Of a stretch of DNA of 64,000 nucleotides, positions 32,350 through 33,012 are shown one piece after another. Under the pieces are notes generated by a model, which did no database searches, had not been told where the DNA came from, and saw only the letters and a list, made by a program, of their open reading frames with translations. Source of the DNA: a virus. Lineage: Duplodnaviria; Heunggongvirae; Uroviricota; Caudoviricetes. Position 1 is the first letter of the stretch. Each line of letters begins with the position of its first letter. Made by a program: the position numbers and the translations under genes. Location of the stretch: IMG/VR virus record IMGVR_UViG_2925908680_000001. One strand, given 5' to 3'.

Positions 32350-32445
32350 AACAGGTAAGAGCATTTGTAGAGTTCGACTCTCTACCGTGGGCTTTTTCCC
32401 GCGATGCGAGCCATAAATGCTCTTACCGTTGTGATGAAGTGCAGC
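32350..32445. repeat. hairpin-repeat unit A (13-bp arms GGTAAGAGCATTT / AAATGCTCTTACC, T-arm-like inner hairpin)
   Basis: Read directly; 3' tail TTGTGATGAAGTGCAG related to units B and C. Confidence 0.7.
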
Positions 32446-32573
32446 TCTTTGAAGCAACCAGAAGATAAGCATCTGGCTTCACAACATAAACCGCAGGAAC
32501 GACCAATAAACGGTAGTCCGTATGGAGAACACCCCGTTGAGGAAGAGGCCTGGCCGGAACCGTAACCGGCACT

Positions 32574-32680
32574 ACAATGTTGAGAACACTGGCGTAACGG
32601 GGTCATATCCCAATCTACGAATAAATGTTGCGTTGCAGCGTGACAACCAGTGTTCTCAACATTGTGGTGAATGCGCAGGC
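32574..32680. repeat. hairpin-repeat unit B (19-bp perfect arms ACAATGTTGAGAACACTGG / CCAGTGTTCTCAACATTGT)
   Basis: Read directly; tail TGGTGAATGCGCAG. Confidence 0.8.
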
Positions 32681-32799
32681 TGATGCGCGAAAGACATTGC
32701 AGCTATTGCGGAAAAGAGCTGTTCGGCGGGGCAATTAAACGCCCGTGAGAGTCTGAAATAACCGCAAGCCGGAGATCAGCACCGGTCGCCACAATAACG

Positions 32800-32886
32800 G
32801 GAGAGTAGGGAGCATGGTGCTCAAGCGGTCTTGAAAACCGTCCCATTGCGCAAGCGATGATGGTTCGATTCCATTACTCTCCGCCA
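32800..32886 (+). tRNA. tRNA-Ser (anticodon TGA), long variable arm
   Basis: Anticodon arm GGTCTTGAAAACC as in E. coli tRNA-Ser(UGA); acceptor stem pairs; encoded CCA. Confidence 0.7.
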
Positions 32887-32889
32887 GTG

Positions 32890-33012
32890 CAACGTTAAGA
32901 GTATTTGGCTAATTAAGCGAATGCCGGAAGCAGAACCGGATCACCAAATGCGTACAGGCGTCATCGCCGCCCAGCCAGCCAAGTGCTCTTACCATTGCGG
33001 TGAATGCGGCTA
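32890..33012. repeat. hairpin-repeat unit C (imperfect arms GTTAAGAGTATTTGG / CCAAGTGCTCTTACC)
   Basis: Read directly; tail TTGCGGTGAATGCGGC matches unit B tail. Confidence 0.65.

Follow-up and report, generated by a model that had tools for sequence, protein, structure and literature searches.

What is the role of the long hairpins that stand between the transfer RNA (tRNA) genes of a P1-like phage-plasmid? The DNA that raises this question comes from a virus of the Caudoviricetes (IMG/VR record IMGVR_UViG_2925908680_000001) and is 64,000 nucleotides (nt) long; we refer to this whole stretch as the window. An original prediction, made from the letters alone, described three hairpin repeats (units A, B and C) among the tRNA genes and offered four explanations: stable small RNAs, degenerate tRNA relics, processing sites or recombination sites. 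Here, we report that the units are members of a real family of RNA elements, with a defined structure and strand and with wide conservation. We suggest, with a probability of about 0.5, that they are ribonuclease III (RNase III)-type processing or 'punctuation' helices in untranslated polycistronic phage RNA. The processing site is the best supported of the four explanations; cleavage itself and its consequences we infer from the size and covariation of the helices and from links to homologues in lambda and Escherichia coli K-12.

Results

Six hairpin units in one leader

Six long hairpins, all on the + strand, lie at 31.2-33.9 kilobases (kb) of the window and are interleaved with five tRNA genes. 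In each unit a closing helix of 20-33 base pairs (bp) is formed by CACAAC(A)GGTAAGRGC... pairing with ...GCYCTTWCCGTTGYG, and this helix is followed by a conserved tail, made up of GTGAATGCG and a small hairpin. Units A, B and C were found where the original prediction had placed them, with all the features that it described. It had nevertheless counted too few, since three further copies (units 0, D and -1) lie outside its range of 32350-33012, all of them within 31.2-33.9 kb, and covariance-model matches at E<0.1 are confined to the same region of the window. The inverted arms are also longer than the predicted 13-19 bp; pairing continues on the outer side through CACAAC / GTTGTG, in many cases with a single bulged A, and the helix so reaches the full 20-33 bp. 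The related tails that had been noticed form, together with the 3' arm, a three-copy direct-repeat family (D4, D7).

Unit A (32344-32445) reads CACAAC-A-GGTAAGAGCATTT ... AAATGCTCTTACC-GTTGTG and has the tail ATGAAGTGCAGC. Its 13-nt arms (32354-32366 and 32415-32427) are perfect and lie 48 nt apart. The interior holds the predicted T-arm-like hairpin GTAGAG-TTCGACT-CTCTAC (32367-32385) and a second hairpin, CGTGGG-CTTTTT-CCCGCG. The unit folds far better than chance (dG -44.4, z = -6.0), with a pair probability of 1.00, and scores 34.5 bits (E=1e-5) against our covariance model R1. Unit B (32570-32687) has an uninterrupted 23-bp helix, CACTACAATGTTGAGAACACTGG / CCAGTGTTCTCAACATTGTGGTG, whose 23-nt arms (32570-32592 and 32647-32669; 96% complementary) are 54 nt apart, and its tail hairpin, GCGCA-GGCTGA-TGCGC, is at 32673-32687. 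It too folds far better than chance (dG -62.2, z = -7.5), again with a pair probability of 1.00. The fold of unit C (32885-33021) is weaker (z = -2.3); it has imperfect 16-nt arms, GTTAAGAGTATTTGGC / GCCAAGTGCTCTTACC (32894-32909 and 32978-32993), a 76-nt interior and the tail ATTGCGGTGAATGCGGCTAAGCGCACGCGG. These z values compare each unit with shuffled controls. The + strand folds better than the - strand.

The further copies were recognised in part by pattern and model. Unit D (33765-33843), CACAAC-A-GGAAAAGGCG ... CGCCGTTTCC-GTTGTG with the tail GTAATTGCGGCTATGCGC, has an outer helix of 20 bp around only about 11-15 nt. It scores 50.5 bits (E=2.6e-9) against R1, a near-identical copy from the relative L003 being in the training set. 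Unit 0 (31816-31898), CATAACAGGCAAGGGCGCTGG ... TCAGCGCCCTTACCTGTTGCG, came from a pattern search and has an outer helix of 24 bp and a score of 17.6 bits (E=0.076); it sits after a transfer-messenger RNA (tmRNA)-like module and before tRNA-Arg, and a homologue stands at the same place in P1 and P7. Unit -1 (31227-31321), picked up by the unit finder, has the arms ATTAAGGAGGCA / AGTCTCCTTAAT (31236-31247 and 31281-31292) flanked by TTCAAC / GTTGCG, the tail GTAATGCACCTATGCGG and an outer helix of 25 bp; its pair probability in the fold of the 2.7-kb leader is 0.91 and its score 20.9 bits (E=0.013), the unit itself being in the training alignment. Because some window copies were used for training, their own scores are in part built in.

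When the whole 2.7-kb leader is folded, its minimum-energy structure contains all six stems, with mean pair probabilities of 0.85-1.0. The tails also have a second possible partner: that of unit C can pair with 33109-33117, and that of unit B, ATTGTGGTG, with CGCCACAAT at 32787-32795. In the 2.7-kb fold this alternative tail pairing does not win. Two other kinds of repeat or signal were considered and rejected. The units are not terminators, as no U-run follows the helices, and they are not a clustered regularly interspaced short palindromic repeat (CRISPR) array, in line with the original prediction: the arms are inverted, the spacing is irregular (233 and 333 nt between D4 copies) and the identity is 71-83%.

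A covarying family on the RNA strand

A scan of viral contigs for the tail motif gave 120 loci, most of which follow the consensus 5' CACAACAGGTAAGAGCATTG, variable interior, 3' CAGTGCTCTTTCCGTTGTGGTGAATGCGCAGGCTGATGCGC. In all, 66 deduplicated units were extracted, and 45 distinct arm/tail combinations were aligned. In the main helix of 20 pairs, 92% of cells are paired, a percentage inflated by the finder's demand for at least 10 of 12 arm pairs. The same demand does not inflate the compensatory double changes, which occur in 13 of the 20 stem pairs, and the observed covariation is reached in none of 500 shuffles. When the partner is slid by 1-3 columns, pairing falls to 34-54%; the register of the alignment is independently fixed by the invariant AAC motif. 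The tail hairpin GCGCA-GGCTGA-TGCGC covaries too (4 of 5 pairs). Since G·U and U·G cells (83) far exceed A·C and C·A cells (13), the structure belongs to the + strand RNA, that is, to the strand of the tRNAs.

Among the members, AAC/GTT and AAG/CTT are nearly invariant, and two imperfections are conserved, namely the bulged A and, in 22 of 45 copies, a mismatched third position of the arm. The outer helix has a median length of 21 bp across the 66 members and is at least 20 bp long in 80% of them. In P1 and P7 the corresponding positions hold the same units, which differ in their interiors and show compensated substitutions in the arms (GGTAAGGGTA / TACCCTTACC in unit A of P1 is an example). 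No family of Rfam 15 covers the units in the window or in seven relatives, at gathering or at permissive thresholds; on unit B there were only meaningless microRNA-precursor matches (E 0.008-10), and STnc100 touches only the tail of unit C.

Distribution and genomic context

A lack of conservation in relatives, which the original prediction had named as counting against it, is decisively contradicted, because conservation is very wide. The family is carried by lambda, lambdoid prophages, P1/P7, N4-like and Vi1-like phages and several siphovirus phages of Enterobacterales. A 41-nt arm-plus-tail sequence occurs in 628 of 5,426 complete E. coli genomes (about 12%) and in 209 phage records from very different groups (lambdoid, P22-like, the Swiduovirus siphovirus swi2, N4-like Gamaleyavirus, Vi1-like Taipeivirus and Uetakevirus), and these 41 nt are 95-100% identical between unrelated phages. 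A scan of one genome per species gave 27 matches, 18 of them true units. Sixteen of these are from Enterobacterales, and the other two are on contigs labelled Martelella and Geobacteraceae, which may reflect contamination or mis-binning. The remaining nine matches, a chance-level number, have no 5' arm and are not units. E. coli K-12 has a single copy, in prophage Qin between cspB and essQ (~1,641,166-1,641,224, minus strand).

The units always stand in an untranslated part of a phage operon: the ban leader of P1/P7, the late leader of lambdoid phages and lambda, or phage tRNA regions. In lambdoid prophages the transcript from the late promoter runs through the tR' terminator straight into the unit, and the holin gene comes after it. 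The copy in lambda is canonical (44,787-44,862); it follows the T-run of 6S/tR' immediately, is the first structure past tR' in the late leader and, on its own flanks, forms a helix of ~20 bp like the rest of the family. The lambda orf-64 overlaps both the 6S RNA and the beginning of this unit, and tiny open reading frames (ORFs) of N4-like and Vi1-like phages also cover units. In three of four inspected phages (swi2, nithesis and Magnus) the units lie among tiny doubtful ORFs adjoining tRNA genes, with several units of different arms in series in Magnus; for the copy in the fourth, Tyrion (Uetakevirus), no tRNA is annotated within the stretch inspected. Overall, 26 of the 66 units have a tRNA within 1.5 kb, and in all 26 the two are co-oriented. 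A miniature inverted-repeat transposable element or other transposon was rejected, since the orientation is always tied to transcription, the conserved tail is on the 3' side only and no target-site duplication was noticed in the flanks.

The original prediction had also named recombination sites. Recombination at the arms and tails is clear from the chimeric arm/tail combinations in L003, and the array is a mosaic among P1, P7, the window and L003, but this looks like a consequence and not a function. The stronger form of the idea is that the units act as DNA, either as folded single-stranded hairpins like integron attC sites or as homology patches like the PeSL of T4, that shuffle tRNA and non-coding modules. 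The layout is reminiscent of attC: imperfect inverted repeats in which an outer pair of AAC/GTT boxes and an inner box pair flank a bulged base, with a terminal structure that varies, and a position at module boundaries in a mosaic region. The near-identical arm plus tail in unrelated phages points the same way. Of the attC boxes R'' and R' (RYYYAAC / GTTRRRY), the AAC/GTT part is invariant or nearly so in the units, and the remaining positions do not fit the consensus. The strict co-orientation with transcription and tRNAs and the G·U excess fit RNA, the supposed cassettes are not promoterless ORFs, and PeSLs carry promoters, none of which is evident at the units. The very different carrier phages share no dedicated recombinase, and no integrase is found among the annotated neighbours in lambda, prophages and lytic phages (the window was not scanned exhaustively for one). 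Ordinary homologous recombination at conserved sequences would give the same mosaics. We regard a DNA function as improbable.

Evidence on the proposed processing by RNase III

We suggest that these long, slightly imperfect helices (~20-25 bp), transcribed within long and mostly untranslated polycistronic phage RNA, would act in cis to punctuate its modules, namely tRNAs, small structured RNAs and the leaders of downstream genes. Most probably, host RNase III would cleave the helix and separate the modules. The cleavage would leave stable hairpin ends on the fragments, and any sequence enclosed by the helix would either be set free as a small RNA or be lost. The release of stable small RNAs, one of the original explanations, is thereby possible.

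The form of the units is consistent with such a role. Their helices reach the ~two helical turns (at least 20-22 bp, with small bulges tolerated) that RNase III is taken to need, and a 22-nt minimum is quoted for its targets (Gordon et al. 2017). Units A and C begin 0-2 nt past the CCA of tRNA-Thr and tRNA-Ser, with the arm 8-9 nt from the tRNA end, here and in relatives, so that cutting of the helix would open the 3' trailer of the tRNA to trimming. The conserved helix with its length and two imperfections, the conserved 3' tail and the near-empty interior of unit D argue for a processing or structural signal rather than a gene product.

Three links, all of them indirect, connect the family to RNase III. 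The first is in lambda. A 1988 report by Daniels, Subbarao, Blattner and Lozeron (Virology 167:568) reportedly deals, by its title, with RNase III sites of the Q-dependent late transcript, of which the lambda family member is the first structure after tR'. The GenBank and RefSeq records of lambda have no RNase III feature in this region.

The second is in Qin of K-12. From RNA-seq of an rnc-deletion strain versus wild type, Table S1 of Gordon et al. 2017 gives a putative site at 1,641,188 (essQ-cspB; 25 reads vs 0 and 0), which the Qin unit contains, 4 nt beyond the upper end of its helix. As the third link, the same table holds the known DicF-processing site, 1,649,470, and this falls in GGTGAATGCGGCTGAGCGCACGCGG, the type-2 tail of the family. 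In Qin, GATGTGGTG, which precedes GGTGAATGCGGCTGAGCGCACGCGG, forms a 21-bp helix with a downstream strand and closes the dicF-dicB leader. The tail of unit C and the next 120 nt are homologous with this leader (NC_000913.3 1,649,440-1,649,600). They include an STnc100-like leader (32996-33116, + strand; Rfam RF02076, 39.4 bits, below the gathering score of 47) that starts in the tail of unit C and is closed by ATTGCGGTG / CACCGCAAT. The tail sequence of the family is the 5' strand of the helix that closes this leader.

Several points weigh against processing by RNase III. The Qin site is weak, with 25 reads in one of ~1,900 listed, unstranded peaks, and the chance that a listed peak falls in a given 70-nt element is ~3%. 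The lambda hairpin is no more than a candidate for the sites mapped in the 1988 report. In the minimum-energy fold of the full lambda leader, an alternative pairing, GUUGUGCUG / CAGCACAAC, displaces the unit helix. RNase III needs little sequence specificity, and therefore the 41-nt identity and the near-invariant AAC/GTT and AAG/CTT are left unexplained; recent horizontal module exchange or a sequence-specific partner is also needed beside it. Finally, the conserved interiors described below suggest that the cargo matters too.

A different use of the same strand is antitermination. According to this idea the 3' arm, UGCUCUUUCC / GCUCUUACC, the GU-rich GUUGUGGUG and the hairpin mimic boxA, boxC and boxB, and a Nus-factor complex of the rrn or N type is loaded that shields the long untranslated transcript from Rho. 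The arm resembles the boxA of lambda, CGCUCUUA, and of rrn, UGCUCUUUAACAA, and a U·U mismatch that leaves CUUU free is frequent (columns 14/45 are unpaired in 22 of 45 copies). Untranslated leaders of 2-3 kb need protection from Rho, and the boxA/boxC of rrn adjoin RNase III stems. Against this, the boxA-like strand is locked in a very stable helix once it has been made, many members have compensated variants that are not boxA (GTGTTCTCAAC, GTCTCCTTAAT, CGCCGTTTCC), and the lambdoid copies are in Q-modified transcripts, for which no Nus-boxA system is needed. We consider antitermination the least probable of the explanations discussed here.

Variable and partly tRNA-like interiors

The interiors of the units are 9-172 nt long and comprise 57 distinct sequences that have no sequence in common. 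In 42 non-redundant interiors, T-arm-like hairpins (a 4-bp stem with a TTCRANY loop) occur six times, in five of the interiors, where 0.02 are expected, and none of 2000 shuffles gives as many. Exact matches of 11-14 nt to tRNAs were found on the + strand of eight interiors, mostly to the T-arm region, compared with one in the minus-strand control. ARAGORN calls no tRNA that overlaps a unit and none that is enclosed in any of the 66, and with Rfam RF00005 the units gave no match, at thresholds of E<=10 for the window and E<=0.1 for the relatives. Being unrecognised by both, the units were rejected as tRNA or pseudo-tRNA genes. The suggestion of tRNA relics thus has partial support, from the T-arm-like hairpins.

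If the units were decaying tRNA genes, the arms would be leftovers of their flanks and would have no present function. The tRNA-like pieces in some interiors agree with this, as do the location of units in tRNA clusters and an interior in phage Magnus with a D arm resembling that of tRNA-Leu and a T arm. However, conservation is highest in the arms and tail, which also covary, the opposite of decay, and the covariation in the arms already largely refutes this explanation. In addition, 40 of the 66 units have no tRNA within 1.5 kb, no unit encloses a callable tRNA and none matches the tRNA model. We think decay very improbable.

Some interiors are conserved. One example is the hairpin of unit B type, GCGUAACGGGG...CCCAAUCUACG, which has compensatory variants. 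Another is the core of the interior of unit C, a 65-nt module (AATTAAGCGAATGCCGGAAGCAGAACCGGATCACCAAATGCGTACAGGCGTCATCGCCGCCCAGC; 32911-32975) that is 98.5% identical to a segment of the lambda late leader (query 25-89). This C module is 85-98% identical among lambda, rV5-like phages, where it comes after tRNA-Ser, the siphovirus ST1UNAM and the P1-like elements. It was located at ~44,863-44,935 in lambda, at 1880-1945 in L004 and at 1515-1580 in L134. It is always within some closing stem; the stem differs each time and is compensated, and the inner hairpins are invariant. In lambda the module lies outside the unit, bracketed by GTTGTGCTG...CAGCACAAC; this shows that a unit's tail has a further possible partner in the CACAAC ahead of the following module.

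These interiors raise the possibility that the units are scaffolded small RNAs, in which helix and tail would serve as a scaffold for processing and stability and the variable interior would be the functional product. The released RNA might be a decoy for host nucleases or modification enzymes directed at tRNA, or a base-pairing small RNA. This explanation is compatible with RNase III cleavage and differs from the processing signal only over the purpose of the element. It is favoured by the hypervariability of the interiors between families, by the C module and B-type hairpin kept across unrelated phages, by the excess of T-arm-like hairpins and tRNA matches, by the order of unit A (T arm, closed hairpin, long terminal helix), which is like that of YrlA, and by the Tad2-like anti-defence domain and tRNAs among the neighbours. 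However, interiors of 9-11 nt exist (unit D and the lambdoid CTAAG...CTTAG type), therefore cargo is not required, and most interiors are without a recognisable motif. We regard a scaffold as possible but unlikely.

By analogy with the primary microRNA scaffold, helix and tail could go further and be a portable small-RNA 'expression cassette' of Enterobacterales phages, from which RNase III would excise swapped and diversified interiors. The T-arm-bearing tRNA mimics and the C module could then be decoys or regulators, for example against tRNA-targeting or RNA-sensing defences. The arrays adjoin phage tRNAs, the tmRNA-like tag module and the Tad2-like gene. We put this idea forward as a speculation and hold it to be rather doubtful.

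The window and its neighbouring features

The window matches P1, P7 and D6 phages and P1-type plasmids. A 92-kb Salmonella plasmid matches best; over 32000-33700 its coverage is 100% and its identity 97.5%. Rfam places two C4 antisense RNAs, a c4-a1b1 element and isrK in the window, which also has an Lpa gene. Together with the matches, these features make the window a P1-like phage-plasmid. The C4 genes are at 18775-18980 and 58390-58600 (76.7 and 68.8 bits), and with the c4-a1b1 targets and the isrK-like RNA they constitute two immunity-type RNA loci. In P1 and P7, the stretch homologous to the hairpin array is the untranslated leader of the C1-controlled ban operon, with the annotated order promoter/operator, 'dicF-like region', tRNAs, tciABC, tRNA-Ile and ban.

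The tRNA genes are all on the + strand. ARAGORN and the Rfam tRNA model give tRNA-Arg(TCT) at 32097-32173, tRNA-Tyr(GTA) at 32179-32265 and tRNA-Thr(TGT) at 32270-32345, whose 3' CCA abuts the base of unit A. ARAGORN also gives tRNA-Ser(TGA) at 32800-32886, with unit C directly after it, and a tRNA with a CAT anticodon at 33508-33583, which is tRNA-Ile2 in the P1 annotation. Before unit B there is a small leader hairpin, GCCGG-AACCGTAA-CCGGCAC (32546-32569, + strand), seen in the direct-repeat families D5 and D8 and in the sequences L125 and L126. Hairpins of the general form GCCGG-N7-8-CCGG(CAC) stand at 32067-32093 (before tRNA-Arg), 32546-32572 (before unit B) and 32923-32939 (inside unit C), and they also precede modules in lambdoid late leaders and in phage Magnus. 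The spacer module between unit B and tRNA-Ser (32688-32799, + strand), compared by eye with L125 and L126, is nearly identical to the post-unit sequence of the lambdoid late leader and has CGCCACAAT at its end.

A tmRNA-like module at 31640-31740 contains a tag-like ORF (31703-31735), GCA AAC GAT GAT CTG ATG ATG GTA GCG GCC TAA, which encodes ANDDLMMVAA*. The peptide has an enterobacterial ssrA-like start and an AA-stop end. The module also occurs at ~1150-1230 in L001, 2225-2310 in L131, 1135-1215 in L134 and 2268-2355 in L130, and the tag preserves its frame and stop, whereas the peptide itself differs (ANDDLMMAAA in P7; ANDDV[VI]LMAA in Vi1-like, N4-like and siphovirus phages). In the window, in P1/P7 and in the aligned phages, a hairpin unit follows shortly after the module. 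ARAGORN makes no tmRNA call on it, and the Rfam tmRNA_permuted model gives 23.8-29.4 bits against a gathering score of 47. Further upstream, a long hairpin at 31513-31592, with arms AAGAAAGAAGCCGACT / AGTCGGCTTCTTTCTT followed by GTGTG, comes just before a terminator-like hairpin (31611-31628). It is no clear member of the family (model E=4.6) and occupies the place of the 'dicF-like region' of P1. The unit finder also gave false positives elsewhere in the window, from tandem copies 222 nt apart (~3364-4015, minus strand) and from a run of GTTGTG hexamers (~12540-12580).

The non-coding array is flanked by an ORF for a 407-aa coiled-coil protein and by a run of downstream + strand genes (a Tad2-like ORF, a 130-aa ORF, lpa and a 454-aa ORF). 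A scan of seven flanking ORFs (29.6-36.9 kb) gave matches to a coiled-coil family, a Tad2-like domain and Lpa, and one weak match to a helix-turn-helix. The Tad2-like (Thoeris anti-defence 2) domain (E=1.2e-9) is in a 191-aa ORF (34038-34613) immediately downstream of the RNA array, followed by the 130-aa ORF and then by Lpa (35114-35506). In P1 itself, the genes plp and upl (L001 1721-2290, minus strand) run antisense over the 3' end of tRNA-Thr, units A and B and a third P1 unit. Because they lie antisense on top of these, they are probably not real genes.

Discussion

Since RNase III sites in the lambda late leader were reportedly described in 1988, the kind of element is already known. Long imperfect helices that are cut to separate RNAs are also found between genes of the T7 early region, where they are RNase III sites, and as the processing stems that flank 16S and 23S rRNA and the spacer tRNAs in rrn operons. 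As in those systems, the helices of the units bracket a product and tRNAs are embedded between them. There is, however, no sequence similarity, the interior bracketed by a unit is often tiny or apparently arbitrary, and the units are one family that is reused within a transcript and across unrelated phages. In the tRNA cluster of T4, the stable RNAs C and D ('species 1 and 2') are structured non-tRNA molecules that are co-transcribed and processed; they differ from the units in being single genes and not a repeated scaffold, and a sequence relation is not expected.

The processing of DicF in the dicB operon of Qin (Faubladier et al. 1990, as cited in PMC6212723 and PMC5371410) is related through the homology of the leaders. 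The two are not the same, since the long helix in Qin is made of the tail and a downstream strand and is not a unit, and DicF is not present in the window. The YrlA RNAs (Chen et al. 2014, PMC4201824) are alike in bearing a tRNA-like module on a long terminal helix, and in unit A a T arm is followed by a closed hairpin. We nevertheless reject a YrlA or Y RNA. YrlA RNAs have a GNCGAAN0-1G motif near the 5' end for Rsr binding (PMC4201824), and the 5' strands of the units read (C)ACAACAGGTAAGRGC, with no GNCGAA. The T and D stem-loops are nearly invariant in YrlA and have an acceptor-like hairpin between them, and unit A has no D stem-loop and most family members no T arm. No gene for Rsr/Ro60 (TROVE) is among the seven flanking ORFs scanned at 29.6-36.9 kb.

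Literature searches by context and by sequence strings found no description of the units as a repeated, widespread family and no link to tRNA clusters. As regards the lambda late-transcript sites, the searched sources, as far as their accessible text goes, describe no repeated family with variable interiors and no tie to tRNA clusters. What appears to be new is that the units are recognised as a family with conserved sequence and covariation, that one transcript may use up to six or seven of them, that they are spread over unrelated Enterobacterales phages and linked to tRNA clusters, and that their interiors are variable and partly tRNA-like.

If the units are RNase III sites, they would explain how tRNAs and small RNAs mature from kilobase-long untranslated transcripts in P1-like plasmids, lambdoid phages and several groups of lytic phages. 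Since lambda and P1 carry copies, this hypothesis is directly testable in standard strains. The family is a reusable and easily recognised RNA motif that is missing from Rfam. It also calls for a correction of annotation where small 'hypothetical' ORFs have been placed over units, as with plp and upl of P1, in part with orf-64 of lambda, and with ORFs of N4-like and Vi1-like phages. Furthermore, it gives access to the common stock of non-coding modules that unrelated phages exchange, to which the units, the C module, the STnc100/dicF-type leader and the tmRNA-like tag module belong.

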